Below are positions 5,690-56,240 of a stretch of 64,000 bases of DNA, piece by piece. Position 1 is the first letter of the stretch. The number at the start of each line of letters is the position of its first letter. This DNA is from Schmidtea nova (taxonomy: Eukaryota), in the NCBI GenBank assembly GCA_044892505.1, contig CM097882.1, positions 377,208,001 to 377,272,000 on the forward strand. The letters are read 5' to 3'. A model generated the notes under the pieces. The model did no database searches. It saw only the letters and a program-made list of their open reading frames with translations, and was not told the origin of the DNA. Made by a program: the position numbers and the translations under genes.

Positions 5690-6384
5690 TGGTTTATTTT
5701 CTTTCGGCGGGAACCCATAACAAAAGTAATTATAAACTGGCGACATAATATCCTTTATTTAAACAATATTTAAATAATTTGAAAAGAAGAAATAAAAGAA
5801 AAATTCAGTAAATTATATTGCTGGAGAAAGAGAAATCTTTCCTAATCATTCAGGAAAATTATGTGTAAAATAAAATAGATTTTCAATAAATTTTAATGGA
5901 AAAATATAAAAAACTAAGTGAGTATGAATCAAGTTTAATTTTTATTCTTCATTCTGAGCCCCTCTTTTGCCAGAACTATTCTGGGATTTAATATAGGGAT
6001 CCAGCATAAATGAGTAGACATAACCCAAATTACTTTTAAGTATTATGAAGACTTTAGCAGTTTGACATACTACACAAAAGATATATGCAAACCGGGAGCT
6101 CAGTGCTTTTTGTGAATTTCTTGGATTTATTCTTCATAATAATCAATCTGGGATCACATTATGTCTCCATTGCCAGTAAAACTATCTACACTAGCCAAAA
6201 ACGTAGAAAATGGTAATTAAAAAGGCTGAAAAATTTTTTCTTGAAGTGTCAGTCAGTTGGCAACTAAATTTGAGTGGGTTATATTTTAAAAGGACTCCCA
6301 TCTCAATCATGAGATCTAGGATATAACATGTTACTTAATTGTTTGTTGCACATCTTATATAAAATGTTTCACTTAAATGGCAAG
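5690..6384 (-). pseudogene. Probable decayed piggyBac-like transposase, possibly continuing at ~10780-10900
   Basis: Broken minus-strand pieces KH*APGLHISFV, SNLGYVYSF, LNKGYYV, and LEEYWS at ~10800; these resemble piggyBac Y.PG..ISIDE, GY.YNF, KGYH and DYWS. Judged by eye only. Confidence 0.35.
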
Positions 6385-6528
6385 TGTTGCATTTAATTAA
6401 CTCATTTTGTTAATTAATTCCAAACTTCTCTAAAACATATATAAACAGTTAAAATTAGTTTATATAAGTAGATAATTGTAATAAATAAAAAATTCAAATA
6501 ATGTCTATCGCTTTTGATAAACTTAACA
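6385..6528 (+). repeat. 5' LTR of gypsy 2 (144 bp)
   Basis: Direct repeat of 10264-10406; TGTTG...TTAACA. Confidence 0.93.
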
Positions 6529-8986
6529 ATGGCATCAGAAATGGCTCAGAATCTTTAGTAGAAAAGCTAGAAATTCAATACAACTTCGTCAAACTACCGC
6601 CATACAACAGTGATTTTTCCACGTGGATCAAACAACTGGAAATTACATTCGCTTTCTCTAAACTCAAGTCAGAAAGAAGCAATTTCAACACCTAGTAATG
6701 ACAATTCCAACAGCAATCGCAAGAAGATTCTTTCACATGCTTGAAACAAAAGGTATCTCGCCCTTTACGGATCTAAAATAAGCAAGGCTGGAAGATTACA
6801 ACAGAAACAATCCTGTCTCATTTCAAAGTCTCCTAAACGATCATTATTTATGAGATCGTACTCCTTCGGAAGCACTCCAAGAAATCCATATTAAACTATT
6901 TAAATACAGTAATGGGACTGTATCTCTAGTTCTGCTAAAGGACCTGTTCCTCAGAATGTTACCAGAAAACATTCAAAATACATTGTTCCTTTAGTCTGAA
7001 GAAGACATTTTGATGATAGCAGAAATGGCGGACAAAACTATGGGTCAAAAGAAATCTATGCTTAATCTAATGAAAATGAACAATGTTGAAGACCAAATAG
7101 CAGCTTTGAAATACAGCCAGACACCCAAATAACCTCCCTAATCACTGGATACTCTATGTTATTACCATAGAACGTTTGGAGAAAAAGCCCGGAAATGTCA
7201 ACCATCCTGTTCATGGGAACAAAAGAATCAGAAACAAGGAAACGAGAGAATGTTTCAGTAAATTCGGTACCTGGAACCTTTGAGATCACATTAACCTACA
7301 ATCCGAAGCAAAATCAAACTTTCACCATCCCGGCAATTGTCTCCAACAACAACGTTGATTTTCTCATAGACTCGGGTGCCGGTGCTAGCGTATTGCCATC
7401 AAAATTGTTTGAACCGAATCTATCACTTGACAGAAATAGAATATTAATCAGCGCCAACAACTCCATCATCGAATATTCTGGTGACAGAGAAATATCGCTT
7501 AAGTTTGAAGGCTTTCAATAACCATTCAAATGGATATTTGCAGCAGCAAATCTCAGCAGACCAATAATAGGAGCAGACTTTTTGGCTCACTTTGATCTGA
7601 ATGTCAGTTTCAAGAACAGGTAAATTTTCAATATCAAAACTTCAGAATGCGCAAAAGGCTACAAAAAAGTATTAAAGATAAATAGTAAATTTTGTGAATA
7701 TGATGACATTATCTTTGACCCAAAAAAGCCACTAATCAACACCAAATCAGATGTCCAATTGAAGAAAATAGCAAAAGGAGAAGAAAAATCTCAAAAGTCT
7801 CGTAAGCCTTTTGGAGAACGACTAAGAGTAACCAAAGCAGAATATGATTGACTACTAAAAGAAAAGGTCATTCAAACCAGTAATAGTAGTTGGGCCTCAC
7901 CTTTAGTTGTCGTAAAAAAACGATAGAACGTGGAGACCCTGTGGTGACTACAGACTCCTCAACAATCTCACAGTTCCAGATAAATATCGTGTTCTTAGAA
8001 TCAAGGATATTCTTGATGGCCTGATTGGGAGCAAATACTTCACCAAATCAGACGTGATCAAAGCCTACCACCAGATATAGACTACAGAAGAAAACAGACA
8101 CAAAACTGCAGTTATAACCCCATTTGGATTATTCCAAAATAATACGATGCCATTTAGCTTACGAAACGCATCTCAAACATTCCAGCGACACATTGATAAC
8201 ATTCTCAGAGACTTGAAATCATTCTGTGTCTCTTATGTAGATGATGTCTTAATATTTTCAGACAGCCTGGAGAACCATAAATCACACGTTAGAACAGTTC
8301 TGAATAACCTTCATGCAGCTGGTCTCAAAGTCAACATTAGCAAATGCGAATTTAATAAAGAAAGGATCCAATTTCTTGGATTTGAATTGGACAAAAATGG
8401 AGTCAGAGCATCTCAAGAAAGGACTTCAAACATTCTTCAAATAGAAAAACTCAAAAGTGTAAGCATGCTAAGAAGCTTCATTGGTGCCATAAGATATTAC
8501 CACTGGTTGACTCCGCATCTATCTGATCTGTTGGCTCCATTGCATGGTCTAATACCGTTAGCTGCATGAAACAATAAAAAGTTTATTTGGAACGAAATCC
8601 ATGATAGCGCACTTGAACAAGCTAAAGCAGCCCTATGCAGAACAGTGCCGACTGGATATCCAGACCCATCCAGGCCATTCACACTATGCACGGATGCATC
8701 ATCAGTAGCCGTTGGAGCAAGCCTAAATCAAGCAGGTACAGAAAACCGTCTAACACCAATCGCATTTTATTCTCAGACGCTGTCCAAATCCGAAATGAGA
8801 TATTCGACATTTGACACGGAACTGCTGGCAATACAGCTTGCAACGAAACACTTCAAAGACTATCTCCCAGTCTCTTTATTCAAATTAAATACTGACCACA
8901 AACCAATCATTCACATAATGTCGATGAAAGAGCCATCTACAAGACAATGAAGAATCATTGAACATCTCTATCAGTTTATATTCAAG

Positions 8987-8988
<2 letters not shown>

Positions 8989-9060
<72 letters not shown>
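8989..9060. repeat. (TA)n microsatellite inside gypsy 2 pol
   Basis: About 36 TA units seen directly. Confidence 0.95.
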
Positions 9061-9063
<3 letters not shown>

Positions 9064-10263
9064 CAAGGAGAATGCAACTGCTGAACTCCTATCAAGATAA
9101 CATTCTATGGAAATAGTCATGATCCAGATGAATGTAATCAATACCTTTGATAATGCAAAGCTCCTAATAGAACAAAAGTCCGACAAGATGACTTCACTGG
9201 ATCTAAGGGAATCTAAAGATGGTATCCTAATAGATATCAGTCTGGGGAAGCCGAGAATCATCCTTCCGAAATCAGTCAGATTCCATGAATTTCAAAAGCT
9301 ACACCACATCTCACATCCTGGTTACAAACAAATGATACGATTATTAGCATCAAGATACGTTTGGGCACAAATGCGATCTGATATTAGAACTAGGAATTGT
9401 CATTGTCAGAAAGGTCAACAATCAAAGATAAGCCGTCATATCAAGACCCTTTACGGAGATATTCCAAAAACTGGACGATTCAAAACCATTCACATTGATC
9501 TCGTAGGACCACTATCTCTAGTAAATAAAGAGATTCATCCTTTCAATGATCGATAGATCAACGTTGGGGTGAAGCCATTCCAATTAACGAAATATTAAGT
9601 ACTTAAGTGGTAACAATAATGAATAGAGAATGGATAAGTAGATACGGTGTACCTGAAGTTATCATCAGTGATCAAGGGTCGCAATTTGAATCTACCTTAT
9701 TTAACAAATTTTGCAGAAATATGGGCATTGAACATAGACGAACCACAGCATACTATCCCCAATGCAATGGGAAGGTGGAAAGCTGGCACAGAAGTCTGAA
9801 GAACTCGCTCAAGGCTCATGCGACAGACGCAAATAAAACATGGGCTCATGACATCCCGACAGTACTACTAGGTTTACGCAGCTGTTGCACCTCAGATAAT
9901 TCACCATTCCTATCTGCACTCGTGTTTGGAACTAAACTCAGACTACCTGGCGATTTATCGATCACAACAGCAGAAGTTGACGAAGAAGAATCCAATACCC
10001 AAATCACCTACAATCCTATACAAAAAGAAAGAAAGATAGATCTAAAATAAAACAGTTCCATTCAGAAAGAGCTGGCCACATGCACCAGGGTATAGTTACA
10101 AAAACCGATCACCAAAGGACTCGATCTTCCGTATGATGGTCCGTTTAACGTAGTGGAAAGATCACCAGACCTCAAAATATCAATAAAGGACAAAAACAAA
10201 ATCGTCTCTACTGATCGACTACGAGCAAAAATAGAGGCGGATCCCAATCTTTGAGGGGAGTTA

Positions 10264-15351: not shown

Positions 15352-18300
15352 TAATTCTTCCATCAGATAAAAACCAATTGACTTATTGCCCTTGACACAG
15401 AACAATACAACACTCTATTTGAAGAACATCTATCAAACAATGAACCGATAAACAAAATAATCTTACCTGCATCGACTCAGATTTCATACAATAAGAAACT
15501 ATCAACACTTGCAAATATTCAAATCAACCTTCAAATCCAAGATTTACTTTTTAACTGTATTGAGCACTTACCTAGTAATATGACTATGCTACGTAAAGAC
15601 CACAAAAATCCTTTAAAAGGTAGACCTCTTATATCCGCAGTAGACATTCCTTCTACAAAACTTTCTAAAGCTCTTTCAGAAATCCTTCAAAATATATTTT
15701 GCCTTTGGTTCCTTGTCATCTTAAAAACACAACTGAATTCGTCTCTGAAATTACAAATACGTCTCTTCCGTTAAACGCATGAGAATAGTACTTCTGGGGG
15801 TTTATTGATCTTTCCAATCTTTACTGATCAATTCCTCTTCACGGAGAGAATAATATTTTCGACATCGCAGCTTCTTTCTTTGAAACTCATAAAGCCAACA
15901 CTGACCTCGCAGACTTAACTAAAGAAGACTTTATAGAACTTCTAAAATTAACAATAACTTCAGATATTGTCATAATTAAAAAAAACCATTCAAACAAATT
16001 CGTGGATTAGCCATAGGTAATAACCTTTCTCCCATCTTAGCCATTTTCTACATGAACTTTATAATCTAAGATCAGATCTTTTGTTGGGGACAAAATGTTT
16101 TTCTGGAAACGATACATCGACGACATCTTCATAGTCTCCACAATCACTCTCAATCAAATCCTATCACACGCAAATTCTACTAACACCAACATACAATTCA
16201 TTTTTGAAACACCGAAAGCAGAAGATAAAAAACTGTTTTTAGATACCATGGTAAGTTTCACAAAAGGCCAAGATACACTAAATGCAAACACCGAGCTCTA
16301 TTCTAAAAGTTTACATAGTGGTCATATCCTCCCATGGAAAAGTCCTGTTCCACTTCAACGCAACATCGCATTAGTAATAGGAAAAAGAAAGAGCCATAAG
16401 AAACTGTTCAGACGCAAACAAAGTACAAGAAACATTAGAAAACTTCAAAATACAATTCCTCCAAAAAGGATACGCTGAAGAATTTGTAAAGAAATACTTC
16501 CTTAACGAAACATACCACAATAAACCTAACAATAAGAAACGCCAGAAACATAATAGCAATAGCAAACCCAGTACATATCTAAGATTACCTTTCTTAATAG
16601 CACTACAGCCAATAAGATCACCAAAATTTTTAACCAAACATATTTGCCTATCCACAGTCGTCCTACTTTCATAACCTCCGCACCGTTAAAATCACAACTT
16701 CGAAAGACACCGATTTCCAACATCTCCAAACATAAATGTCTTTGCTGTTTCACAACCAGATTCTTTGGCTTTTCCAAAAATATAGTATATAAACTTTCTT
16801 GTCAAAAATGTGACGTTACTTACATAGGAGAAACACATAGAACCTTTCGCACCGACTTAAGGAACACACTAAAAACAAAACCAGTAATTATTACGAACAC
16901 TGGGAAAAAGTACATAAAACAACTCCATCTATAGTAGAAACAAAATGTCAGATTCTAAAATTCATTACAAAGATTAGCTTCCGAGACTTTTTACATCAAA
17001 AAATACATACAGTCCTTCAACATTCAATTCGCACAAAAAAATCATGTTTAAAAAGAAAATTAAAATAAATTTATTTTCATCCAATAAAATCATTATAAAA
17101 TAAAAAATAAATAATTAAGGTTAGTATTTAGGATTAAGTTAATATAACGGTTGTAATACACACTTGATAAAGGCTGTGTCGAAATATTGTGTACTTATTT
17201 AAAGAAATTTCGATCTATAGTCATCCATTATGGGAATTATTGATATTTATATATATTCTCAAAACATTATATAAACTAAATTTTGATCTTTCTTAGAAGA
17301 AAGGATCTTATATTAGACCACTTATGGAAAAATGTTGTAAAGTGCTAATCTAGTCGAGATAAAATATATAAACTAAATTTTGATCTTTCTTAGAAGAAAG
17401 GATCTTATATTAGACCACTTATGGAAAAATGTTGTAAAGTGCTAATCTAGTCGAGATAAAATCAGACAAAAAGTAATGAACACACTTAAGTAATTAATAA
17501 TCAGATAAGATTGTCCAAATAAGCTAAAATTTCTCTAGTTATAGAAATTGTTTTTTTAAATCAAATCATTTTTCAATTTAAGAGACAGGTATTGTAATTT
17601 TGACTATGTATCTCCAATATTATACTAATTATTTTTTTAATAAGAATAGTATTCAACAAAACCATATATTAAAATAATTAAACAAATAAAGACTACTCTA
17701 CAAACTATATATTTATTGTCCCAGATATAAATTGAATGGCAAATACATCAGACACAACAACGAAGGCCACGAACTTTTGAGGTGATTTACAGGCAATATA
17801 AATTTCTTTTTATTTTTGATGATTAATAACACAATTTAATATCCTTGTTACCGATAGAGTTTGCAAATTATAAATAAAAACTAAGTAATGTTATGTTCCA
17901 ATTTAAGAACCATTATTAATAATACTATACAAGCCGTGTGTTTTCACATTTGTATTGTACACTTAGTACTAAGTTTATTCTCTGAGGTTTCCATGGTTTA
18001 TTCTATCAGCCAATAATTATTGACGAATAAATGTAACAGTTAACAAGGCTATTATATACATGATGTATATTAGTTATATTATTGTGTATATTATTGCGTA
18101 TATTATTGTGTATTTTATCGTGTATATTATTGATATATTATTGGTTATTATAGTGATAAAACGTCTGTTAATTTTATTAAATAGGAGTCAAATATAAGCT
18201 ATTTTTTGATATACATCTTTAAAATAATCTAAAATATGCTTCAAATATTTCAACAAAGAAAACATTAAATGTTCCTTACAATGTTCCGTAGGTTTTACAA

Positions 18301-24300: not shown

Positions 24301-27300
24301 TTCGACAAAATACTGACCCACAAAGAATGTAGGATTTCTACCATAGATCAACACTTCCATATTTACAGAGAATAAAGAATAGATAAACGATTTACCAAAG
24401 AAGTGTACAATTCTGAAAAATGCGCAATATGTATAGATGTCATAAATAGTCACAGATACCACGATAATGATATCAAGAAAATAAATTCCAATCTGAGAAG
24501 ACAGAAAGAATTTCAAAAGAAAAAGTATTTCCACCTTCGAATCCTATTTACTAATAACCAAATAAATTTTAAGATCATCAAAAAGCTTAATTTCATTGAC
24601 TTCCAATTCGTTTAGCATATAGATCTAGGACAATCAAGTACACTCTGGCGAACAAAACAAGAAAAGATAATACTTATTAAATGGAAAACTGCTAGACACA
24701 TAAGGAAATATGCTTCCAAAAGAACGTTTTCTATAATATCATGTTAAGAAATGCAAAGAAATTAACATTTAAAGCATCCTTAGGATTTTGTATCAAAGAA
24801 TTAGAAAGTATTTGCATCCTGGTGAAAAATAATATTTATACAGACATATTCAACAGTGTCAGATAGAAAAATGAAAAACTTTAATATCAGATAATATATT
24901 GACCAGAAAAAAACAATAAAAGAATCTCCGACTTAAGGAGGCTATTTTCATTTGAGACCAATACCCAAAATTCAACTTTAAAAAAGATGCCACTGAAATT
25001 GCCCACCTTCTAATTTGTTAATAAGATGTTAAATTTAGAAAAAAACCTTTTGAAGAAATTTTTAATAATTTTAAGTTTAAAACATTTTTTCACAAAGCCA
25101 AAAGAGAAAAGGGGGAAGAAGCCAAAATGAAAAAAGAAAGTAAAGAAATATTTTAATTTTATAGAGATTTTATCATAAAATTAAGTTAGTTATAAACTTA
25201 AATTTAATAAAAGGTTAAAATATAATATAAATATATATTTGAAAGTTTACAGATTATCTGATTACCTTGAATATTCAAGTGATGTGATATTCAGTGTACC
25301 AGGAAAAGTACTCAATAAAGTTATTTCAACTTTGTTTTATACTTACCTGGCGTGAAGAGCAATCTTCGGGTCTTATGTATAGCACTGACGAGAGCCCAAA
25401 GCCTGAAACTAGTCTCTTATTAGGAATTTGCATTGGGTATCACAAAGCTTTACCTTTTCTTAATTAATAAATAATAATGGTTATCAAATATTTAAATTAA
25501 ATTAAATGATAATAAAAATACACACTTAAAAATGCTGTTCCTAAAGTTCGTGTGCCTTAAAAAAAGAAATTTGATCTATAATCTTTATTTAAAAAATTTA
25601 AATTAAAAAAATTAATTTAAATCTTTTTTAAATATGTAAATATTTCTTTTTCTTTCAATTTCTCAAAGATTTATATATTCAAAACCTTCTTTTCATAATT
25701 TTTGATTTTTTCTAAATTAATAATAATTGAAAAGATTTCCGAATAGATAGAGAAGTGATAAAAGATGAAAATATAACAGTAAAGTTTATTTAAAATTTAA
25801 AACTGTCAAGTTTACAGTGTAATATACTTTTATAATTCGAATGCTATTACGTGCTTGTTAAGGTGTCATTTTCATTTTGTTCCTATCCATTCGTTTTCGA
25901 TGCAAAAGCAAAATCCAAATTGTTGCAAGTCGAAGCTGGCTTGTTTATGCGAAATGCAGTTCTAGAAACTCATACAAATCTGATTATGTCCATACTCAAT
26001 GCTCAAGAGTCAGGCATTATCAACATGGAAACTCCGTTTTTTGAAATCGGCGTTAATCGAGAAACAGTTCTTCAAGACACATTAAAAGCACTTGAAAAAG
26101 CATCTCAAAAGGAATTTAAGAAGCCATTAAAAGTTTATTTACTTAATATATAAATTGCTTTTTTAAACTAATACTTTTAGATTTCCTTTTCAAATGAAGA
26201 AGCAGTCGATGACGGCGGAGTTGTGAAGGTAATACTTTCGATAATTATTGTTTAAATAAAAATATTATATTTTATAATTTAATTATTCAAAAAATAATTC
26301 GGAATCCTTATTACAAAAATAAATTATTTCATCTATATTTTTAATGAAAACCTTGAAAGATCCAAATACGTATAATAAAAATACGTAAAAAATGTGCATA
26401 TTAATCTCAATAAAAATATTTCAATATAAAACGGTATATTGACGAGCTAGAGAGTGATCCACAATATAAAACTTAGAATTGAATCAGAATGTTCACAAGG
26501 GTATTTTGACGTTTTTAAATACAAAAAAAGCTCTAAAAACTATTATGATCTCCAACAAAGTGTGAAAATTACTTAAATTGCTATTTAACATTAACTAAAA
26601 TTATTAAGATTAAAACTAAACATTTCATTTTTTTTCTTTATTTAAACGTTTTTCTAAATGACATTTATTCATTTTTACTAAATAATTACTATCTTTGTAC
26701 GCGTGGTTAAATTTAAATATTTTTTTAGTTTAACTCAAATTTTTGTATTTTTCAATTTTAAAAAGTTTTTCTCTTATTCTAAATAACTTATTTTATTTTA
26801 TAATTAAAATTAATTTTATGGTGTGATGTTATTTTAACTAAGTTTTATATGTTTTCCCTGCCTAAGTTGTGTTACATTTTAGGCAAAGGAGTTCAAAAAT
26901 ATTTTATTTTTTTATGTTATTTGTTATACAGATGGAAAAAAAACTTTTATAAATTTTTAAAGAACTTTTTTACTTTTTTACTTCCGAAATTATTTGTGCC
27001 TTGTTTATTTATTTTATTTATCAGAATTAATAAAATTATAATTTAGATTAAATTTTAATTATTTCATTGACTTAAAATAGCTTTTTAAAAGTTCTGATTT
27101 ACAAAAATTGTATACTGCCGGAAGAGTGCTGATTTTAATGAATTCTCGGAGGCTAGTCGCTCTATAGAAATCTTTTTAAGGAATTTGGTATTTTGTATTT
27201 GTCACAATTTCCATTGTTAAAATACTAGAAAGTGCTTTAAAAATTATTTAATACTAATAATACTCTTTAAAAAAAATTTATTTATTTTATTTAGATTTTT

Positions 27301-30300
27301 AAAAATATTTATTTGTATAAATAAAAATTTACAAACATAATAACTAATCTTACCCTCACACGTGGCATCAAAATAATACCTAACAGCGCTTGGCATAGTT
27401 ATCCATAAGCATTATACTAATAAATAAAATTTACTTAACATATTTATTTATATTAAAAGTAATTTGTGATATTATGAAACTATTATGTTTAGTTATTGAT
27501 AGACCTTGTAAGTAAATAAAATAGAAGATATTTCGAATTTTACGTGAAATATCAAAATGATAATAAATGAACAAAAAATAAAATTTACAAATTATTTGTT
27601 AAATAAAAATATTAATCATTTATTTCCTGTTCAATGGGTTTTTAAAATTTAAAAACCGTTACTAAGAAAACGGGTAAATGTTTGAAGAAGGCATTCCATA
27701 TATTTTTTCATTAGTCAAATATTTTTGTATTTCTTATCATAATGTTGAGAATCATTTCATCTAATTTCGAAAGAAACATTTTTTTGTTTTTAACAATCAT
27801 TACATTTACATCATTTTCTTGAAAGCTCTGCTTATCATCTTGTAACAAATCTGTTAACATTAGAACTACTGACGAAATTCTATACTAAAAACTAGATAGA
27901 TATGATCCATTCTATCTTATAGGTTTATTTAAAAATTACGATGTTAATGTTCATAATTAAATATTTTTTTCGTTTTTATATACTTTCTTCAAATAGAATG
28001 AATCCAAAAATATATTTAACCAATTGCAATTTATATAATAATATATTTAAATTATCATTTTTTGGTATCAACTTTAATTAAATATTAATAAATAATAAAT
28101 TAAGCCTAAAAATAAAATATTAAATTTATATTATTAATATTATAATAATATTATATGATTATATAATATTGATATATTATTAAATGTTAAATAATTAATA
28201 AATAATAAATTAAGCCCTTGCTGCAAATTTTTATTAAGTGAAAATTTTCGATTATAAAATAATCCTTATCTATCAATCTATTTAATAATTATTTAATAAT
28301 ATATTGAATTATTAGCATATACAAGAGTAGGGGATAGTGAGCGCACGGAGCCACTTTTTTCACACAGCAACGGTTGCTAGGGTAAATACACACATCAATA
28401 TATAATCCCCGAGGAACCTATTTCCAAGGTAAACACACACTTCGATATATAATCCCTGATGAATATGTTGCCAGGGTAAATACACACATCAATATATAAT
28501 CCCTTAAAAACACCTTGCTAGGGCAAACACATAATCGAGGAACCTGTTGCCAGAATAAACACGCACATTAAAGTATAATCCTCTTGCAACCTGTTGCTAA
28601 GGTAACCACATATGTCAATATATAATTATTAAAGTAACTATTGCTAAGGTAAATACGCCATTGTGTAACCGCAGGGACTACTGTTGGTAGACCTCAAAAC
28701 ATACAACACATTAATTATTACCCGTAACACACACGATAAAATGTTTTTACTTAATCGAATGACATTTTTGTTTTAATGTACTGACTAACATTTCGAGTAG
28801 TTGTTCCACATATTTTTAACTTATAACTTTAGAAAATCGAGTGTGGGAACAATGAAAACGGATGGAAATAATTCGAGAATTGTGACAATATTCGAAATTT
28901 TATAAACTATTCAGCAGCGGGGAACTATAAGAGCAAATGAAATTTATTAATATTTGTAAACAGAAATAGTTATTTTTTCATTAAATAAAAAGATTGACAC
29001 ATAAAAACAAAATGAAAACGCTGAACGATAAAACCGTTTGAAATCTTGAGAATACATAAAAACTTTGAAAATAATTAAACATAATAAATTAAATAAATAT
29101 AAAACTAAATACAATGAAACCAATTATTTTTATCAGTTTTATTCATTACATATCTGAATTTGAGAAATAATTTGAATTGAGAGCTGGATCTGGAACTAGA
29201 ACGCTAACCTGATCTTTTGATTGGTATATAAACGAGTAACACCCCTTATAATGTCCATATGCAAGACTTTCATTTTTATCCACCCAAAGTCTTTTGTCAT
29301 CAAGATTAGTCAAGGCAATCTTAGAAGATTTATTAGTAAAGAGTTGATGATTCTTACTAACTATTCGTGATTGAGCAACAGAAACTATTGAATTATTATT
29401 ATAACAATCCAGATATGACTGATGATTCAATTTAGTATCCTTCAATGTTATACCTTTAGCCTTAATGCACTCTTCATCACCTAAAAGACTGTAACACTTT
29501 GGCCTAAGGAATGCCCACTCATCATACTTGAATCCTTTATTCTCATCTTTGAATTTACCAATGACGGAATCTAGGTTCCTACTGTATAATGGGTGATTCG
29601 GATCGTAATTAGAAGTGTCAAGTAAGTTATCTCTTATCATGGCCGGTAAAAGAATATCGAGCTTACAATTCTTAATCTCCAAGAAGAAAGAATCGGTGTC
29701 ACCAGCAACGATGTTAATTTCGCAGTTGAATTCATTACGATATTTTTGTAATTCTTCATACTGCAGCTGGTACATTCTAAGTTTAGATAAATCCAGTACA
29801 GTTTGACCAATGTAGCTGGGTCTATCTAAACACAAAGAGTCCTTATTAAGTAAAACAGAAACTAGGTCATCGTCAATTCTATAAGTTTTTCTAAAAGTAG
29901 GTTTTGAAGTATACGTAATCAGTTTCGATTCTGAATTACATAGTCGTAAATTAAGTCATTTTTTAAGATTTTCAACCGTTTTCCCATAAAGACTATTATT
30001 CAAGAGTTTGTAATAGTTTTTATCTAAAGCCGTAGAAGAAGCTGCCCTAAGTTCAGTGTTCGTATCCATATACTTTTTAAATATAGGTTTCTGATTGTAC
30101 AAAAAGAAACATTTTTAACTAATAAAAATTCAAATAAATACAAATTTTATTAAAATAAATCTTCTTCATCATCTTCTTCTGTAACTTGATTGAATTCTCT
30201 GTCATTAATGTCTTTATAATGCCCGTATGCACAACTTTACTCCGTCTTTTGTAGTTTACGCTGATTTTTAGGCGATCTTACCTTCTGATGATAAGTACTT

Positions 30301-33300
30301 TCAAAGACATGCGGCTAGTCAACAATCTTTTGATTCTGCTACTATTTGTTATCTTTGTAAGAAAACTTTAGTACAACCAGTCAGAGACCATGATCACTAC
30401 ACTGGTGAATATTTGGGAGCTGCTTGTAATTCTTGTAATCAATCCCGTCGTTTATACAAGTTTTTACCCGTTATTTTTCATAATTTAAAGATCTATGACT
30501 TGCACCATATTCTTAAATATGGATTGGCTAACTTTAGTAGTTGGAAAATATCTTGTATTCCTACAACTAGTGAAAAGTTCTTGACATTGTCTGCAAGGGT
30601 TGGTGATTTAACAATTAAATTCATCGATTCTTGTCAGTTTGTTAACTCTAGTTAAAATGATGCAGTTAAGACTCTTACTTGTCTGCCTTTGACTAGATCT
30701 GAATTCACCGGGACTATTGTAGATTGTAAGGGCATTTTTCCTTATGATTTTGCAACATCTTTAGAAATCCTTAATAACACTTATGAGTTGCCACTAAAAT
30801 GGGAAGGTGTTAAACAGGCTGAATATGACAAGGCATTGGTGATTTGGAGGTAATCCCAGTGTCAAACTCTGTGTGACTATATGATGGTCTATCTTAAACT
30901 GGATGTTTTTCTTCTTGCTGATTTCTTTCAACAGTTTAGGGCTAAATCTATAGCTCACAATAGACTTGAGCCTTTGAATTTCTTGGGGATTCCAGGTATG
31001 TCGTGGGCTTCTGCGCTTATTACAAAGAAAAAACCTATTGAGTTGCTCCAGGATATGGAGATTTATAATTTTTTCGAAGGGGGGATCCGTGATGCATTGA
31101 CATTTGTCAACAAACATCACGTAGTATCCTCCGAAACGACTGAACTTTTATACATTGACATAAATAATTTATACGGATGGGCTTTAAGTCAAAAATTACC
31201 TTATGGTGAATTTAGTTGGATCACAGATCAAAATAAATTTAATTAATTAATTAAATTAATGGATGCTGATTTGGCTATTTTAACTTATGGCGTGACTTTT
31301 CAAGTGGATCTAGAAATCCCTTCAGAAATTCACGATAAATTAAATGATTTTCCGGTTGCAGCAGAGAAAATGTGTGCTCCCTGTTCAAAAGTTGAGAAGT
31401 TAATGCTTACGCATTATCCAAAGTTCAACTACGTTGTTCATTGGAGGCTTCTCAAGCTTTTTGTTTCTTTGGGTGTTAAAATAACACAAGTTCATCGGGC
31501 TGTTCAGTACAATCAGAAACCTATATTTAAAAAGTATATAGATACGAACACTGAACTTAGGGCAGCTTCTTCTACGGCTTTAGATAAAAACTATTACAAA
31601 CTCTTGAATAATAGTCTTTATGGGAAAACGGTTGAAAATCTTAAAAAACGACTTAATTTACGACTATGTAATTCAGAATCAAAACTGATTACATATACTT
31701 CAAAACCTACTTTTAGAAAAACCTATAGAATTGACGATGACCTAGTTTCTGTTTTACTTAATAAGGACTCTGTGTGTTTAGATAGACCCAGCTACATTGG
31801 TCAAACTGTACTGGATTTATCTAAACTTAGAATGTACCAGCTGCAGTATGAAGAATTACAAAAATATCGTAATGAATTCAACTGCGAAATTAACATCGTT
31901 GCTGGTGACACCGATTCTTTCTTCTTGGAGATTAAGAATTGTAAGCTCGATATTCTTTTACCAGCCATGATAAGAGATAACTTACTTGACACTTCTAATT
32001 AGGATCCGAATCACCCATTATACAGTAGGAACCTAGATTCCGTCATTGGTAAATTCAAAGATGAGAATAAAGGATTCAAGTATGATGAGTGGGCATTCCT
32101 TAGGCCAAAGTGTTACAGTCTTTTAGGTGATGAAGAGTGCATTAAGGCTAAGGGTATAACATTGAAGGATACTAAATTGAATCATCAGTCGTATCTGGAT
32201 TGTTATAATAATAATTCAATAGTTTCTGTTGCTCAATCACGAATAGTTAGTAAGAATCATCAACTCTTTACTAATAAATCTTCTAAGATTGCCTTGACTA
32301 ATCTTGATGACAAAAGACTTTGGGTGGATAAAAATGAAAGTCTTGCATATGGACATTATAAGGGGTGTTACTCGTTTATATACCAATCAAAAGATCAGGT
32401 TAGCGTTCTAGTTCCAGATCCAGCTCTCAATTCAAATTATTTCTCAAATTCAGATATGTAATGAATAAAACTGATAAAAATAATTGGTTTCATTGTATTT
32501 AGTTTTATATTTATTTAATTTATTATGTTTAATTATTTTCAAAGTTTTTATGTATTCTCAAGATTTCAAACGGTTTTATCGTTCAGCGTTTTCATTTTTT
32601 TTTATGTGTCAATCTTTTTATTTAATGAAAAAATAACTATTTCTGTTTACAAATATTAATAAATTTCATCTGCTCTTATAGTTCCCCGCTGCTGAATAGT
32701 TTATAAAATTTCGAATATTGTCACAATTCTCGAATTATTTCCATCCGTTTTCATTGTTCCCACACTCGATTTTCTAAAGTTATAAGTTAAAAATATGTGG
32801 AACAACTACTCGAAATGTTAGTCAGTACATTAAAACAAAAATGTCATTCGATTAAGTAAAAACATGTTATCGTGTGTGTTACGGGTAATAATTAATGTGT
32901 TGTATGTTTTGAGGTCTACCAACAGTAGTCCCTGCGGTTACACAATGGCGTATTTACCTTAGCAATAGTTACTTTAATAATTATATATTGACATATGTGG
33001 TTACCTTAGCAACAGGTTGCAAGAGGATTATACTTTAATGTGCGTGTTTATTCTGGCAACAGGTTCCTCGATTATGTGTTTGCCCTAGCAAGGTGTTTTT
33101 AAGGGATTATATATTGATGTGTGTATTTACCCTGGCAACATATTCATCAGGGATTATATATCGAAGTGTGTGTTTACCTTGGAAATAGGTTCCTCGGGGA
33201 TTATATATTGATGTGTGTATTTACCCTAGCAACCGTTGCTATGTGAAAAAAGTGGCTCCGTGCGCTCACTATCCCCTACTTACAAGTATACAATATTTTG

Positions 33301-39300: not shown

Positions 39301-42300
39301 AAATCGGTTCCAGTGACAAATGACAATAAAGAACAATTTGTATTAGATTACATCCATTTCATGTTAGATAAGAATGTAGCTTCAGGATTCGACGCGTTCA
39401 AAATAGGATTCTATCTAGTTTGTGTTGGTTCAGTGCTTAAATTATTCCGCCCAATAGAACTACAAGTAAATATGCAGATGATGTAATACTGAAAATGCTT
39501 AATTTATACAAATCATAAATCAAGGAAATGATGGTCGGTTGTGAGATCAATGAATGGTCTGAATTGCAAAACAACGCAGTCTATGAGGGTGATTATTGGA
39601 AAGGTCATCAGGTGATCATTTGGTTTTGGGAGGTATTTAAAGAAATTAATATTGAGAAAAAGAAACGATTTCTAAGATTTTTAACAGGATGTGACAGGGC
39701 CCCAATAACAGGGGTTACTGATTTCAAAGTGAGGAGTAAATCATTGCATTTAACATAAATATATTTTAAATTAAAATTAAAATTACATAATCAAATTAGA
39801 GTAAAAGATTTTGTAGATATTAAAACAATCATTTTATTACGTATTTTAAATAAGTATTTTAAGTTAAAATCGTGTAATTTTAATACGTTGACTGCTTTCA
39901 TAAAGGTGAATACTAAATCTGTATTGTGTACTGCGGACGGCACATGTGTCAGTTAGCGGGTTAAAATAATAAATAAAATAAAAATTTTTTAAAAAAAGAT
40001 TTTAGGATAATAATTTCAAATGAGTATTTCGCATAAGTAGTTTTACATTAAAATAGTTCAATTTGGTTTTGTTATTTTTGAAGGTTTTATTTTCAAAAAA
40101 TAATAAATTAGATAAAAATGTTATATAGATAGATTTCATAAAAAATAATTTAAGTAAGTATTTTTAAATAAAAAAATGCTCGTTTTTATTTTGTTTAAAT
40201 ATCTTCGAAGACAAAATTATTTCTTGAATTAAATAAATATTTTTGGATAAATGACTTCGGATTCTGAATTAGATGAAGATTTTCTAACAACATCTAATAA
40301 TAAATTCTTTTCATTTTTAAACTATTCAGACAAATTGCTTCTGATAAATAATCTAAATAATTAATAGAAATTTAGATAATAAGATAATTAATTTTTTTCA
40401 TTGTGAATATTTATAATTTATAGAAATTTAAAATTAATCTTTATTTAAATTAAATGAAATTTTACAAAATATTTAAAATATGTAAAAGAAAATTAAAAAA
40501 AATTATTAAATTACGATTTTAATTTTTTTATATTATATCACCGTGTACAATTATTTTGTACAGACTTAAAGCGTTCCGGAAATTGTTTCTTGAAGAAAAT
40601 AAATTGGCTCAAAGGTTTTGTAAAACACCGCAAATTGGTGGTTAAAAGTTCTTATTTGAATATTCCATCCAGTACTATTATATTACAATTGATCATAAAG
40701 TACTCCTCTTGTTGAGGGGCGGGATACATAGGATTAATATAATACACTTTTATTTTTATTAAACATCAATTTAGTTATTCCCGGAACGCCGCTGTGAGTG
40801 TGTTACTAGGTAGCAATGTCCTGTCTGAACCATTATGAGTTATCGTGCGTTTTTAATAAGATTTTTTAAGTGTATTTTGTTAAATTGTTTGAATTTTTTT
40901 TTTTATTATTATTAAATTAATTAAANNNNNNNNNNNNNNNNNNNNNNNNNNNNNNNNNNNNNNNNNNNNNNNNNNNNNNNNNNNNNNNNNNNNNNNNNNN
41001 NNNNNNNNNNNNNNNNNNNNNNNNNNNNNNNNNNNNNNNNNNNNNNNNNNNNNNNNNNNNNNNNNNNNNNNNNNNNNNNNNNNNNNNNNNNNNNNNNNNG
41101 TTAGTATTATCATAAAATCAAACAATGTGTCACAATTAAATTCATTCCATATATGTTGAGCTTTTTCATATTCATCGGTTATAACTCCTTCGCAAATCGG
41201 TGGCAACTCGTATGTATTTTGTAAAACCTCTAAAGAAGTTGCAAAATTATATGTAAATATCGCCTTCGAAGTAATAATAGTCCCTATAAATTCGGATGAA
41301 GTAAGAGGAAAATCTGTTAAAGTCTTTACAGCATCGTTTAAGCTGGAGCTTACAAATTGGCAAGAATCGATAAATTTTATAGTTAATCGACTCTTGCATA
41401 TAAAGTCAAAAACTTTTCACTTGTAGTAGGAATACAACTTATATTCCAACTTGGAAATTTATTTAAACCATATTTGAGGATATGATGTAAATCATATCCA
41501 CGTAAATTATGAAAAATTACAGGCACGATGAATCTAATTTTCTGAGAAAAATTGCATTTAAAGCAAGATGTACCCAAGTATTTACCTGTATAATGGTCAT
41601 GAACCGGATTCTTCAAAGATTTATTACACAAATAATGGGTTTTTAGCCAAAAACTGCCTTATAAGGAATTTAAATGGGTAACTGATAAGGCAAAATTAAA
41701 TAAAATAATTTATTATTGTGAATCTGCTGATTTAGAAGTATTAACTTATGGGTTTACATTAGAAGTCGATTTAGAAATTCCTGATTCGATTCACGACAAG
41801 CTGGATGATTTTCCAATTGCCTCTGAAAAGATGTGTCCACCTTTTCTCAAAGGTTGAGAAGTTGTTGCTCACGCATTATCCCAAGAAGAACTATGTTGTT
41901 CATTGGAGACTTCTCCAATTCTTTCTTTCTCTTGGAGTAAAAATAACTCATGTCCATAGGGCAATTAAATTTAAACAAGCATGTATTTTTAAGGATTACA
42001 TCGATACCAATACCAGACTTAGAGCAGAATCAAGTAATGCTCTCGGTAAAAATTATTATAAATTATTAAATAATAGTCTCTACGGTAAAACCGTAGAGAA
42101 TCTTAAAAAGCGCATAAATTTAAGATTATGTAATTCGGCTTCTAGGCTGATTACATATACTTCTAAGCCAACTTTCAAAAGGACTTTCGAAATTGACGAT
42201 GATTTGGTTGCCGTCTTGCTGAATAAGGAATCGGTGTGTTTGGATAGACCCAGCTACATTGGCCAAACTGTACTGGATCTATCTAAACTTAGAATGCACC

Positions 42301-43274
42301 AGCTTCAGCATGAAAAGTTACACAAATATTGTGACGACTTCAACTGTGAATTTAACATCGTTGCTGGGGATACTGATTCGTTTTTTCTTGAGGTTAGAAA
42401 TTTTAAGCTTGATATTCTTTTACCGGCCATGATAAGAGATAACTTGCTTGACACTTCTAATTATGATCCGAATCACTCTTTATACAGTAGGAACCTTGAT
42501 TCTGTCATTTGGAAGTTCAAAGACGAGAATAAAGGGCTTAAGTACCAGGAGTGGTTGTTTCTTAGACCTAAATATTAGTCTTTTAGGTTAAGAGGGTAAC
42601 ATTGGTGGGTACTGGCATAAAGTATCAGTTGTACCTGGATTGTTTTAATAATAACCAAATATTTTCTGTTCCCTAAACCAGAATCACGAGTAAAAATCAT
42701 CAACTATTCACTATTAGAAATGAAAAGACTGCACTGACAAACGCAGATGATAAAAAGAAAAGGGTAGCAAAAAAGAAAAGCTTGGCATATGGCCATTATA
42801 TGGAGGGGACTTGGTTATATTTCAACATACCGATCCAAGCATCAATACATATCAACAATTTCAAGATTCAGATGAAAATATCCATGATGACAGTTTTATT
42901 TAAATAAAATTTGTTCAAAAATTTAGTTGTTATTGTTTTTATTTATTTAATTATTCGTTTTATATTGTACAGATTAGTTTCAGTCTATTTTTTATCAGTC
43001 TGTCTTATATTTTATAGATGTTTTTGTCTATCTTTATAATTTTGTAATAATTTCAAGAAACTATGGTTAAATCGTAGATATAATAGCAATAATAAAAATA
43101 ATAAAAATAATAAATAAATAAGTAATAAAATAAGTAATAAATATTTAGTTTAATACTTATTGTAATTATACATGTAATTTTTTTGTTGTGCAGAGTCGTC
43201 TCATTTGTTTTTTATTTGTTTGTAATATTTTGATGAGTGTTTTCATTGAACATTTATCATTAAAGTTGTTCAAA

Positions 43275-47442: not shown

Positions 47443-50030
47443 AGTAGGTAGTCAATGGTTCTTTGGCGCACTTCAAATACTACCCACCCCCACCCCCCTA
47501 GAAAATTTTTTCTCTGCGTTTACGGGCCACTATGTTTTTCTGGCCATTTTTGTATTAGAAATTTATTGTCGGTCTTTTGTACAGGTGCGTTAGCGGGCCA
47601 TTATGTTTTTGGGTCGATCTTTTGTATTGGAAAATTTTTGTCAGTCTTTTGTACAGGGATTTTTAGCTCCGAGATTTTTCTTGGGCAAAAAGGGACTCTG
47701 GTATTTTGTACATGGAATACTGGTCGGTGTTTTTTGTACAACAATTTCTTCTCCCAGATTTTTCTAGGGCAAAAAGGGACTCTGCTAATTTTGAACTGAA
47801 ATTTTAATGGTAAATAAAAACACGTGTAAATCTTTTAAACAAGTAAAATACATTGAAATTATTTTGAATAGGATTTTCAATTCCCACAATTTCTCGGGCA
47901 AAAAGGGACTCTAGTAATGTGAGAGTTGAAATGACACAATATTTAAAATTTATTAAAAAAAAGGGTAACATTAATTTTTTGGAGAAATCAGAGTTGGTAA
48001 ATTTTTAAATATAAAATTAAATTCTTTTTCACAAAATGAAATTCTTTTTTCACAAAATTCATTTTTAAACCAATAAAAGTATTAACTAATAAAATGAAAC
48101 ATTTTTAACTAATAAAAATTCAAAAAAATAAAAAGAAACATTTTTAACTAAATTTTATTAAAATAAATCTTCTTCGTCGTCTTCTTCTGTAACTTGATTG
48201 AATTCTGTGTCATTAATGTCTTTATAATGCCCGTATGCACAACTTTCATTTTTTCCCACCCAAACCCTTTTATCCTCTTTATTACTTAGTGCAATTTTTG
48301 AATTTTTAAAGCTATATAACTGATGATTTTTTGTACCTATTCTAAATTGTGGTACACTAATCTCTGAGTTATTTAAATAACATTTTACATATGAATCGTG
48401 GTCTATTTTAGTATCCTTTATTGTTGCTCCCTTAGCTTTTGTAGTATTAGTTTTACCCAACAAGCTGTAACATTTCGGTCTAAGGAAAATCCACTCGTCA
48501 TATCCTTCACCCTTACTTTCATCTTTAAATTTCCCAATAACAGAATCCAATTTCTTGCTGTATAGTGGGTGATCAGTTGGATAATTTGATGTATCTAACA
48601 AGTTATCATTTTTCATTTCATTTAATAATATTTCTAATTTCTAGAAAAAACGAATCTGTATCGCCTGCTACGATATTTATCTGACAACTATATTTGTCGC
48701 GATATTTTTGTAAATCTTTGTATTGTAATTCGTACATTCGAAGTTTTGATAAATCAAGCACCGATTGTCCAATATAACTCGGTCTATCTAAACAAATCGA
48801 ATCTGGATTTAATAAAGCAGCAATTAAATTATCGACGATTTTAATAGATTTTTTGAAAGAAGGTTTGGATGTTTATTTAACTAGATTTTTCTCCGTTGAA
48901 CATAATCTTAAATTCATTCTCCTTTTAAGATTTTCCACTGTTTTGCCATACAGATTATTATTGAGTAATTTGAAAAAGTTTTTATCTAAAGTATTACTAC
49001 TTTTCGCCCGCAATTCAGTGTTGGTGTCTATATACTTTTTGAAAATTGGATATTGCTTAAATTTAACTGCTCTATTTATCTTTGTGACTTTAACACTAAG
49101 TTCTAAATATAATTGAAGTAATCGCCAATGAATTATATAATTCTTTTTAGGGTAATGAGTCAATAGTAATTTTTCTACTTTTGAACCTCGTGGTTTCATT
49201 TTTTCTGCAGCTACTGGGAAATCATCCAAGAAATCATGAATTTCAGCAGGTATTTCCAAATCTACCTCTAAAGTGTAACCGTAAGATATAGATTCAAGAT
49301 TTAGATTAATACAGTCATGCAAAATATTATCTAAATTATCAGTCATCCAACTAAATTATCCACAAGGTAAAGGTTGACTTAAAGTCCATCCGTAAAGATT
49401 ATTTATATCGATATACAATAATTCTGTATTTTCATCGGTTTTAACGAAGTGTTTATTTACAAAAGTCAGACCTCCTCGAATTCCCCCTTCATAAAAGCTA
49501 AACATTTCATTTTCTGTTATTAATTCTATTGGTTCATCTAAAGTCATTAAAGAAGATGACCAAGACATGCCAGGAATACCGAAGTAATTCAATGGCTCTA
49601 ATCTATTGTGAGCTATAGATTTGGTTCGAAATTGCTGAATGAAATCAGCCAAAAGAAAGCAATCAAGTTTCAAGTAAGTCATCAAATAATCTAAAAGAGT
49701 AACACAGTTTGTTTCTGTCCAAATCAGTTGTGCCTTTTCATATTCTTCTTTTGAAACACCTTTTCAGATTGGTGGTAACTCATAAGTATTTTCAAGAACT
49801 TCTAAACTTGTAGCAAAGCTATACGGAAAAATACCTTTTCAGAAACTATAGTTCCATTAAAAACCGAATTTGTCAAAGGTAAAGATTTCAACGTTTTCAC
49901 TGCCTTTGCCAAAGAATCATTCACAAACTGGTATGAGTCTATAAATCTTAAACTAATCTTGCCAACATGAGCTATCAATGAAATAAATTTTTCAGTTGTA
50001 ATAGGTATACAACCCAATGACCAATTCTTG
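47443..50030 (-). mobile_element. polB: Third Polinton: terminus, subterminal repeats and disrupted pPolB of a divergent family
   Basis: AGTAGGTAGTCAATG at 47443; GGGCAAAAAGGGACTCT at 47683, 47767 and 47896; pPolB pieces (YLKLD, GIRGG, DINNLYG, KLLNNNLYGK, RPKCYS) ending at the stop at 48158; other end not found. Confidence 0.8.
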
Positions 50031-53000
50031 AACTTATTTAATCCGTTTAAATTCTTTGTCAAAAATATTCTGAAACTTGCAACTATTAAACAACCTATAC
50101 AATAGTTCGGGTTAGTATTAAAACCATATAAGCAAAATCCAAATATGATAAATATGGTTAAAATCAAAAAAATATCAAAATAACTAAGTGTGCAAAAATT
50201 ATTAAAGTTATTAAGTTATTAAGTTTAAAGACTAACTCAAATTTTATAATAAAAACTTAGTAAAAGGTTCCTAGAAAAAGTAATTTGGAAATAAAAAATT
50301 AATTAAAAATTAATTAATCGCTCAATGGTAAGCCCGAGACAATGGAAAACCCGATCAATGAGGAAGGCCTGGAGAGCGAAAAGACCCGAGAAATTAAAGG
50401 CGAGTAATTTTCAAAGAAAATTGAGATAAGCCCACTGTACGGTAAACAAATTAATTTGTCATTATCGTCATTAACTCAAAATATTCGAGATAATATTTAC
50501 ACACAATTAGATAAATGTCCCATCAAAAGAGTATAAAAAGAAGTCAAAATAAAGACAAAACGCTGGTTGGTTGAAAATATTTACGTCAAAATTGTAAATT
50601 GAAAAACTTTAGGAAAGTTAATAGATGGAGAAAAAAGTGATTATAATAAAACTTTACTCAATGAAACATACCAGAAAAGGTGATTACCTCTTGGGTCATC
50701 TGCCTTAACGTTGAATCAAATTAAAGGAAAGTGCAAATTATTGTAAAATTGTAAATTAAAGACAAAAAGTAATTTGTTGTGACAGTCAAATAAAATTCTT
50801 GTGTTGGGTATTATTGATTTTGATAAATAAAAGGACACGAGAAGTCAGAGGTTGTAGCGATTTAGTGGTTTAAAAAATAAACCAACACAATATTGCTTAC
50901 TGTAATTATAATAACTTTACTTAAACAAAAGTTTTTAATTCTTCCAATGTCTAATGACACAATTACAATAGTAAAGTAGTAAATATTACAAAAATATAAA
51001 TTAAAAATTTAGAAAATAAGTTTTAAATATTTCTCATTTCAACATGACAATCATCATCAATCAAATGTGAGTGAAAACTCGAAGGGAATTCTTTTGTGTA
51101 TTTATCATCAATTTTAAATCAAAAGCTTTACCTGATTTATTGTGAGAAATAATTCACAGAAATAAAAATAGAAGATTCAGAAAGCCAAATTGTCTAGGTT
51201 AAGAATATGATATGAAATCGGCTTCCGTAGTTTCATAACAACTTCATTATGACAGGATCGCTCAAATTTTAATATGAAATAAACATTTTTAAAAATAATA
51301 TTTTAAATTATTTAAATTTATAATTTGTTTGCACAATATATTAAATCGATTTAGAATTTATTTCCTATTTGATGTTGACAGTAAAGCTGTAGAAATATAT
51401 AGCAATACAATTGCTTTATTAACGCTTTTTCATAATTGAATCTTTGCCACGTTAATTTAATTGTCATTTAAAATTAAAACAAATATATTAAAATATTTCA
51501 TTTAACCCTAATCATATCAATATGAGGCTCCAAGTCACATCTGAGGTGTAAAGGAACGAGCCTATGAAATTATTTACATTGAAATTTGAAAAATAATTGG
51601 CATTTATTAAATATGATAATTTTTCGTGTTAGGATATTGGAAAGTAGTGAAATCTTTACAATTAAAATGCTACAGAATTGGAGTAAAACATATACATAAA
51701 AAATAATTGAACCTGTTCAATCTAGTTTTTGCATAGAAAACAATACTGATTGGGGATCAATGGAGCATACTGAGTTGTATGCTCCATTTTAAAATTTCAG
51801 ACGTTTTTAGGGTGATTTGACTAAAATTTCAGTTAACTTATATACTAAATTATAGTTTCCTATACCCTTGTGTGGTATTGATTCTTTTTATTATTATTAC
51901 AGCACTCATTGTGCTCATAAATTTATTTTAACCCCATGGAATGTTATTATTATCATTATTATAATTAACATTGTAAGGAACAAGTAGATTAATTAATTAA
52001 ATTAACCTATTATTCAATAATAATTCAAAATCATAATTTCAAGTTAGAAATTATTTATGATGCTTGATTGTTGTGCTTGTATGTTGGTATGTGTATGTGT
52101 GTTTGGAGGTATTCTGTAACAATAATGAGTAAAACAATAAACTCCCTTTTTAGATGTTATACAATGATGAGCTATAAAAGTGTGAGTTGTATATTTGTCG
52201 TCAGAATATATTTTGGTGTATCTATNNNNNNNNNNNNNNNNNNNNNNNNNNNNNNNNNNNNNNNNNNNNNNNNNNNNNNNNNNNNNNNNNNNNNNNNNNN
52301 NNNNNNNNNNNNNNNNNNNNNNNNNNNNNNNNNNNNNNNNNNNNNNNNNNNNNNNNNNNNNNNNNNNNNNNNNNNNNNNNNNNNNNNNNNNNNNNNNNNN
52401 NNNNNNNNNNNNNNNNNNNNNNNNNNNNNNNNNNNNNNNNNNNNNNNNNNNNNNNNNNNNNNNNNNNNNNNNNNNNNNNNNNNTTAGCAGAGTTTAATAA
52501 AATTTAATAATAAGGAAACAGTGTTAAGCCTACTCCTCAATGTTTATTTAAATGAAATATTTCGATCTTAAAAAGATCAAATTATAATATAAACCATAAG
52601 TTCATGATCACTAAAATATCAATAAAAAATTTCAGTCAAGATCACAAAAAATATTTCTTTTAAAAATAAATTTTCATATTCAAATAAATAAATGATATTA
52701 TTCCTTTTTATTTACACTTAATATCATAAACATTAATAATATTTAAGAAATGGTTGAAATAAAAAGGGTTTTGAGGATAAAATGTATTCAGCTTAGGGCT
52801 GTGAAGGTTACTGAAGTTATCCATCATTTACTATGCTGAATGTTACAAAGGTATTCTTTCTTTCAGATGAATTACTTGTTTATGTAAAGTGAATCTTTAT
52901 ATATGTAATTAATAGTTCCATATTGTATTATAGAATTGAGGGGTCTACATAAAATTTCAATATTTATGGGTAATAATACGTGAATGAAAATAATCTCAAC

Positions 53001-54699: not shown

Positions 54700-56240
54700 C
54701 TTTTTTTATTATTATTATCAATAATTCTCATAATGACTATAGATCAAAATTTTTTTTTATAAACAATAACACAATATTTCGGCACAGCCTTTATCAAGTG
54801 TGTATTTCTATCGTTATATTTACTTAATACTAAATAGTAGCCTTAATTATTTTTTTAAATATTTTATAATGATTTTATTGGATGAAAAAATATATTTTAA
54901 TTTTTTTGTGCGAATTGAATGTTGATGGACAGTTTGTATTTTTTTATGTAAAAAGTCTCGGAAGCTAATCTTTGTAATGAATTTTTGAATCCCTCTTGTA
55001 GAATCTGGCATTTTGTTTCTTCTATAGATGGAGTTGTTTTATGTACTTTCTCCCAGTGTTCGTAATAATTACTGGTTTTGTTTTTAGTGTGTTCATTAAG
55101 TCGGGTGCGAAAAGTTCTATGTGTTTCTCCTATGTAAGTAGCGTCACATTTTTGACAAGAAAGTTTATATACTATATTTTTGGAAAAGCAAAAGCATCGG
55201 GTTGTGGAACGGCAAAGACATTTATGTTTGGAGATGTTGGAAATTGGTGGCTTTCGGTGTTGTGATTTTAACGGTGCGTAGGTTATGAACGTTGGACGGA
55301 CGTGGATAGGCAAATCTGTTTGATTAAAAATGTTGGTGATTTTGTTGGCTGTAGTGTCATTTAGGAAAGGTAATCTTAGATATGTTGTGTGTTTGTTATT
55401 GTTAATATGTTTCTGGCGTTTTCTATTGTTGCGTTTATTGTGGTATGGTTCGTTAAGGAAGTGTTTTTTTAGAAATTCTTCAGGGTATCCATTTTGGAGG
55501 AATTGTATTTTGAAGTTTTCTAATGTTTCTTGTAGTTTGTTTGCGTCTGAACAGTTTCTTATGGCTCTTTTTCTTTCTCCTATTAGTAATGCGATTTTGC
55601 GTTGAAATGGAACGTGGCTTTTCCATGGGAGGATATGACCGCTATGTAAACTTTTAGAATATAGCTCGGTGTTTGCATTTAGTGTATCTTGGTCTTTTGT
55701 GAAACTTACTATGGTATCTAAAAACGGTATTTTAACTTCTGTGTTCGGTGTTTCAAAAGTGAATTGTTTGTTGGTGTTAGTAGAATTTGCGTGTGATAGG
55801 ATTTGATTGAGAGGGATTGTGGAGACTATGAAGATGTCGTCGATGTATCGTTTCCAGAAAAGTATTTTGTCCCCAAAAAAAGATATGATCTTAGATCCTA
55901 TAAAGTTCATGTAGAAGATGGCTAAGATGGGAGAAAGGTTATTACCCATGGCTAATCCATGAATTTGTTTGAATGGTTTTTCTTTAATTATGACAGTATC
56001 TGAATTTATTGCTAATTTTAGAACTTCTATAAAGTCTTGTTTAGTTAAGTCTGCGAGGTCAGTATTGGTTTTATGAGTTTCAAAGAAAGAAGCTGCGATG
56101 TCGAAAATATTATTCTCTCTGTGAAGAGGAATAGATCCGTTAAGATTGGAAACGTCAAGAGATCCCCAGAAGTACTGTTGTCCTGCGTTTAACGGAAGAG
56201 ACGTATTTGTAATTTCGGAGACGAATTCAGTTGAGATAAT
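54700..56240 (-). mobile_element. 5'-truncated Penelope-like element with terminal pLTR
   Basis: Same family as 15365-17245; homology begins at ~56240. Confidence 0.92.

Follow-up and report, generated by a model that had tools for sequence, protein, structure and literature searches.

The DNA analysed here (the window) is an AT-rich stretch of 64 kb from the 1.25-Gb genome of Schmidtea nova (G000:C1:377,208,001-377,272,000). The subject of this work is a 4,955-bp element within it (28326-33280), which begins with AGTAG, ends with CTACT and carries part of a protein-primed DNA polymerase B (pPolB) gene; a first-pass annotation made from the sequence alone had taken it for a copy-back defective genome of a Polinton integrated in trans. 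As listed in Table 1, the element is flanked by two direct copies of TACAAG, a match with a chance of about 1.8e-4 given the composition of the flanks, and the flanks themselves are not inverted. The 6-bp target-site duplication (TSD) and the AG..CT terminal inverted repeats (TIRs) expected of a Polinton/Maverick are both present, as previously described, with arms that exceed the published TIR lengths. Between the arms there are 13 substitutions and one 1-bp indel, and each has a stop codon of its own: of the 57 arms that cover the right one (32000-32002) a single arm carries it, while the left one is present in 2 of 53. This also agrees with the initial description.

Table 1. Position of the element's features in the window, and its full-length relatives
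Feature	Position	Strand	Remarks
Left TSD, TACAAG	28320..28325	+	same letters as 33281-33286
Left arm of the inverted repeat, 1,775 bp	28326..30100	-	99.2% identical to right arm
Polinton family-1 terminus	28326..28345	+	first 16 bases common with full 15.5-kb elements
Subterminal imperfect 47-bp repeats	28373..28657	.	mirror copy at 32949-33233
Inverted pPolB C-terminus	29149..30099	-	reference codons 1006-1291 plus tail; private stop 29956-29958
Deletion junction closing left arm	30099..30100	.	L021 position 1880 joined to 6362; ~4.5 kb lost, 2-bp overlap
pPolB 3' end of second Polinton family	30101..30238	-	back-to-back with family-1 pPolB; 97% identical to window 48150-48246
Broken C-terminal half of family-1 pPolB	30239..32461	+	runs toward right end; N-terminal part absent
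Second deletion junction	30298..30311	+	~160 bp of L021 and L060 missing
Right arm, 1,774 bp	31507..33280	+	inverted partner of 28326-30100
Right TSD, TACAAG	33281..33286	+	same letters as 28320-28325
Full-gene-set copies			L096+L097, L098+L099, L100+L101, L102+L103, L104+L105

The coding content was identified as pPolB from pieces of PF03175, an endonuclease VII-like finger and the homologues found. The duplicated arm corresponds to codons 1006-1291 of a 1308-codon reference frame, i.e. about 22% of pPolB; the half of the gene that had first been assigned to the arms (codons 607-1291, about the C-terminal half) is present only when the whole element is read on the + strand, where it is interrupted by four stops (at 30653, 30851, 31244 and 32000). 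Comparison of the arms with a full relative confirmed that both ends of the element derive from the pPolB-proximal end of a Polinton. What defines an autonomous Polinton is lacking: there is no intact pPolB with an N-terminal terminal-protein domain, and no retroviral-like integrase, packaging ATPase, protease or major capsid protein. Tblastn searches with the ATPase, integrase (two pieces), capsid and protease of a full relative gave no match anywhere in the window, which bears out the absence noted earlier. The features of a non-autonomous Polinton derivative are found instead: its ends are held in common with a full element of the same genome, and insertion has taken place repeatedly with no integrase of its own.

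Two sister palindromes and the inner edge of the left arm

Two other loci carry close relatives of the window element. The first, L021, is a 9.6-kb palindrome with TSD TTTATG and arms 97.6% identical; the other, L060, is 6.7 kb long with TSD CCCATT. The arms of these sisters (2.8 and 4.0 kb) are longer than those of the window element. The lineage therefore occupies three sites with three different TSDs, so that an element that, as had been supposed, cannot move itself belongs to a lineage inserted at least three times. The further copies with different TSDs that a genome search was expected to reveal are these sisters; of the 4.95-kb form itself, only the window copy was found.

When aligned on L021 the window element falls into collinear blocks (110-1880, 6362-6574 and 6736-9685) separated by two deletions. 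Since the inner part of L021's right arm matches the segment 30099-30311 at 99.5% identity, the edge of the left arm is a deletion. A genome-wide search for the 30099-30100 junction, with one mismatch allowed, returned the window copy as single match. On the strength of this alignment, the 1.77-kb arm ends inward at a deletion junction in a larger palindrome and not at a copy-back point; the arm is what remains of a 4-kb arm after a deletion that may have preceded or followed insertion.

Next to the first junction, the pPolB 3' ends of two Polinton families lie back-to-back. This two-family junction is found once in the window element, in both arms of L021 and once in L060, and only there among the 40 scored out of 1132 candidates. 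In L021, each arm consists, in order, of a family-1 end, the fused pPolB ends and a family-2 end. The centre of L021, part of which is also held by L060, is 88-93% identical to a Polinton-free locus on C2, the match stopping where the family-2 terminus starts; a search for Polinton genes in the 20-kb C2 locus gave no hit.

The lineage lacks all Polinton genes but pPolB, in which there were stops already before its spread. The stop at 30653 is present in all five lineage arms covering the site, and the one at 30851 is present in the window element and both L060 arms and absent from L021. Because the former is found in all covering arms, the lineage was polymerase-broken, and also integrase-less, before its spread. 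The stop at 31244-31246 is common to 31 of the 53 arms compared, showing that a polymerase-broken lineage has become widespread.

To follow the history of the six arms, departures from the rest of the family were polarised against 28 other arms. All six arms depart together at 19 sites, the four arms of the window element and L060 at five, and five of the six arms at one. Both arms of a single element depart at four sites in L021, two in L060 and one in the window element, and single arms at 19 sites; no polarised site pairs one arm each of different elements in this three-element lineage. In addition, an identical 94 bp is missing from both arms of L060. Both the departures common to two arms of an element and the shared 94-bp loss indicate that the arms were equalised repeatedly. 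We infer that in this lineage arms were re-equalised around rounds of spread and drifted apart after insertion; the equalising step may be self-copying, hairpin repair or chromosomal conversion.

Related palindromes and full Polintons in the genome

A 20-nt pattern describing the family-1 terminus gave 940 forward and 919 reverse exact matches, against 0/0 for the reversed control; these 1,859 matches include internal termini and are not a count of elements. From the first 100 matches (C1, 3.4-73 Mb) we retained the 27 loci with termini paired within 30 kb, a sample that takes in 62 of the 100 listed matches, keeps three mis-paired loci and favours young, intact copies. A perfect 6-bp TSD was found for 21 of them and a 5-of-6 match for three more. 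Ten of the 27 were at least 74% self-complementary, and seven carried more than 1,000 pPolB codons in each arm. In relatives the arms are up to 6.9 kb long, with an entire pPolB frame in each, and there is wide variation in arm length and in the centre. The centre of one hairpin copy (L069+L070) can be read as a fold-back, its loop being 12 nt long. The same design is found in a second Polinton family: at about 463.22-463.23 Mb (G000:C1, L094+L095) lies a 12.7-kb palindrome with two pPolB genes, arms of 4.99 kb that are 99.8% identical, and TSD ATTCAA. Among 33 metagenome loci, mostly short and such as may not resolve palindromes, none had an inverted pPolB copy.

The full gene set, i.e. ATPase, integrase, capsid-like protein, protease and pPolB, was found at five of the 27 sampled loci: four copies of 15.3-15.5 kb and one 19.3-kb hybrid. 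The genes code for an A32-like ATPase, an rve integrase with chromodomain, a C5 protease, a candidate double jelly-roll (DJR)-like capsid protein and pPolB; PF00665 (integrase, E 3.2e-8), PF04665 and PF00770 were recognised in the 15.5-kb relative. The capsid candidate is a DJR-like look-alike, 30% of its cluster members having PF21738. In four of the five copies the pPolB DNA is about 95% identical to that of the window element. The autonomous helper that had been called for is present: its first 16 terminal bases are identical to those of the window element, and its subterminal region is different. The TIRs of the full copies are about 1.0-1.3 kb as aligned, and in all five the last 184 pPolB codons are repeated, inverted, at the opposite end. 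A parent with pPolB-containing TIRs as long as the arms had been named as evidence against a copy-back origin; such a parent is nearly at hand, given the ~1.3-kb TIRs with pPolB of the full copies and the arms of up to 6.9 kb in relatives. An integrase family beside a family-1 end in L036 was considered as direct helper and rejected: the arrangement is chimeric or nested and the pPolB genes are only ~57-76% alike.

Several side observations were made on these elements. One full 15.5-kb Polinton contains an open reading frame (ORF) resembling TATA-binding protein (TBP) (L102:2031-2363, minus strand, PF00352, E 1.1e-13), a protein of which a word search of one review gave no mention, and an adenovirus mu/protein-X-like ORF (PF05829) is likewise present in the full 15.5-kb Polinton. 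Three palindromes (L108+L109, L137+L138 and L135+L136), 11-13 kb long, share these termini and have perfect TSDs but gave no pPolB hit at a 78% cut-off. Palindrome centres of about 800 bp, derived from the end of the full element, lie between inward-facing Polinton termini in L067+L068 (8197-9043) and at 4.87, 5.28, 12.1 and 51.5 Mb of C1. In the palindromic subfamily, a candidate short first exon followed by an AT-rich intron was seen by eye upstream of the long pPolB frame (L026:6965-7935). Back in the window, 41100-42820 and 47443-50050 are two further decayed pPolB remnants of other families, the latter beginning with a family-2-type terminus at 47443. Frames elsewhere in the window (850-3420, 7170-10050, 15380-17200, 54750-57960 and 61750-62740), judged by eye, are presumably remains of long-terminal-repeat retrotransposon pol, Penelope-like reverse transcriptase/GIY-YIG and mariner-like transposase genes.

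Origin of the palindromes

From the above data, we consider it probable that the window element is a non-autonomous Polinton derivative which arose through two internal deletions of a 9.6-kb palindrome, the palindrome being likely a fold-back (copy-back) product of a single Polinton end, inserted, likely, by an integrase acting in trans. Protein-primed synthesis would start at the family-1 end and continue across the end of the adjoining element into the flank; finding no matching end there, it would switch to its own strand and copy back, which would yield two identical ends. The integrase of a helper could then insert the palindrome with a 6-bp TSD. The arms would be equalised in each round, by self-copying or by repair in a folded single strand, and would drift apart after insertion. 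The fold-back idea put forward in the first-pass annotation thus holds for the family, where the palindromes and the fold-back centre of L069+L070 point to a likely replication-coupled copy-back followed by integration in trans; it does not hold as stated for this copy, whose arm edge is a deletion junction.

The first-pass version, in which a full Polinton gave rise directly, by one copy-back event, to the 4.95-kb genome and its 1.77-kb arms, accounts for the two pPolB-proximal ends and the perfect TSD, but it is contradicted by the left-arm edge, which is a deletion relative to L021, and by the sisters, whose 2.8- and 4.0-kb arms hold DNA that the window form is without; we regard it as very improbable. 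Another explanation would be an assembly artefact, through fold-back chimeric reads or collapsed repeats. Among the listed contigs of four public runs from one study (none recorded as RNA), no piece spans the junctions within 27300-31500, and in one relative, located on a small contig, the flanks are inverted almost perfectly over at least 10 kb. One contig from these runs does agree, without differences, with the left flank (27300-28247). The direct TSD, the non-inverted flanks, the 14 differences between arms (separate stops included) and the sisters with shared junctions at other sites and with other TSDs are not what an artefact would produce, and we give this explanation hardly any credit.

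A more serious competitor, though one we still judge unlikely, is that the palindromes arise, and become equalised, on the chromosome, by break-induced fold-back, ectopic recombination between inverted neighbours and arm-to-arm gene conversion, and that a helper integrase moves them, with no copy-back involved. Break-induced fold-back inversion is reportedly a described route (PMC10622511), and this genome is densely populated with Polintons, nested copies among them. At three loci the inverted repeat even passes the Polinton ends into the flanks: L026+L027 (~8.4 kb), L022 (at least 10 kb) and L133+L134 (~0.7 kb). Such repeats are better explained by fold-back on the chromosome or by an error of assembly than by an excised replicon, and indicate that one or the other also occurs. 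Most sampled palindromes, on the other hand, stop at the Polinton termini and have a perfect TSD. Arms residing in place gather private differences (14 in the window element; 97.6% identity in L021), from which conversion in place appears to be slow, whereas changes common to both arms are found at every node of the lineage and changes shared by one side at none.

Besides the three flank-extending loci, several points weigh against the copy-back origin that we prefer. In the unpolarised count, one column does pair the left arm of the window element with the right arm of L021. In a nearest-arm test over 400 bp, only half of the elements (12 of 24) had their own other arm as strictly the closest match (own arms differed at no more than four positions in 21 of the 24). 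The host-like C2 match is a paralogue of about 90% identity, so that the precise donor of the centre was not located. The subterminal region of the full copies departs from that of the window element after the first 28 bases, save for one terminus, the right one, of the 19.3-kb hybrid. By our own reasoning, simple panhandle replication alone would not equalise arms of several kb, so that an extra step has to be assumed. The proposed mechanism, moreover, is built on sequence patterns.

A broader proposal, which we put forward tentatively and hold to be possible rather than probable, is that one Polinton end suffices to give rise to a new mobile element. From it, protein-primed copying would proceed inward, even across other elements or host DNA, fold back and rebuild the second end. 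If true, founding from a single end would account for the occurrence of multi-kb palindromes in two families, for the pPolB sequence within the TIRs of full elements and for host DNA being duplicated and transported, and the genome would preserve intermediates of Polinton replication as a large fossil record.

Comparison with known systems

The pattern displayed by the family is unusual, and the window copy is a decayed member of it. About one third of our small sample consists of 10-14-kb palindromes with arms sorting by element, which offers a test of single-strand fold-back replication on sequence data only; to our knowledge, Polinton replication has been modelled and not observed. The family also gives clear targets in which to look for free hairpin or linear forms, and it points to a route for the duplication and movement of host DNA and for the seeding of unstable palindromes. 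No description of pPolB-containing or multi-kb Polinton palindromes was found by literature searches, though supplements or Repbase entries may hold such elements.

TIRs are 46-1,447 bp in intact vertebrate Polintons/Mavericks (PMC8097293) and 100-1,500 bp in Polintons generally (bioRxiv 10.1101/2023.08.22.554363), pPolB plus TIR loci lacking an integrase are reported in C. elegans (bioRxiv 10.1101/2024.01.15.575659), and Polinton pPolB has a terminal-protein domain for protein priming (PMC11161782). The window element resembles these transposons by its AG..CT ends, 6-bp TSD and pPolB, and has a full relative in the same genome; it differs from them in that it retains a broken pPolB only and has coding DNA inside its inverted repeats, which are 1.8 kb long here. 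Copy-back and snap-back defective viral genomes are defined in PMC13506859, and snapback genomes of adeno-associated virus are treated in PMC8235507. The window element is like these in that the two termini come from the same end of the parent and a helper is required, and its relatives are near-complete palindromes. In contrast, the window element is integrated, inherited with a TSD and known here from its integrated sequence; its arm edge is a later deletion and not a template-switch point, and the centre of its lineage holds host-like DNA.

Very long TIRs with internal short repeats are also found in the window element's case as in Foldback-type transposons (Drosophila FB and Galileo), which move by a cut-and-paste transposase; our element differs from them by its Polinton ends, 6-bp TSD and pPolB, and it has no such transposase. 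Palindromic mini-replicons that use a terminal protein are familiar from the end repair and defective genomes of adenovirus, the mini-DNAs of phi29 and the palindromes of Streptomyces linear plasmids. There, regeneration of the second end by intra-strand annealing would give the same anatomy; those replicons are free, whereas the products described here are fixed, in many copies, in a eukaryotic chromosome.

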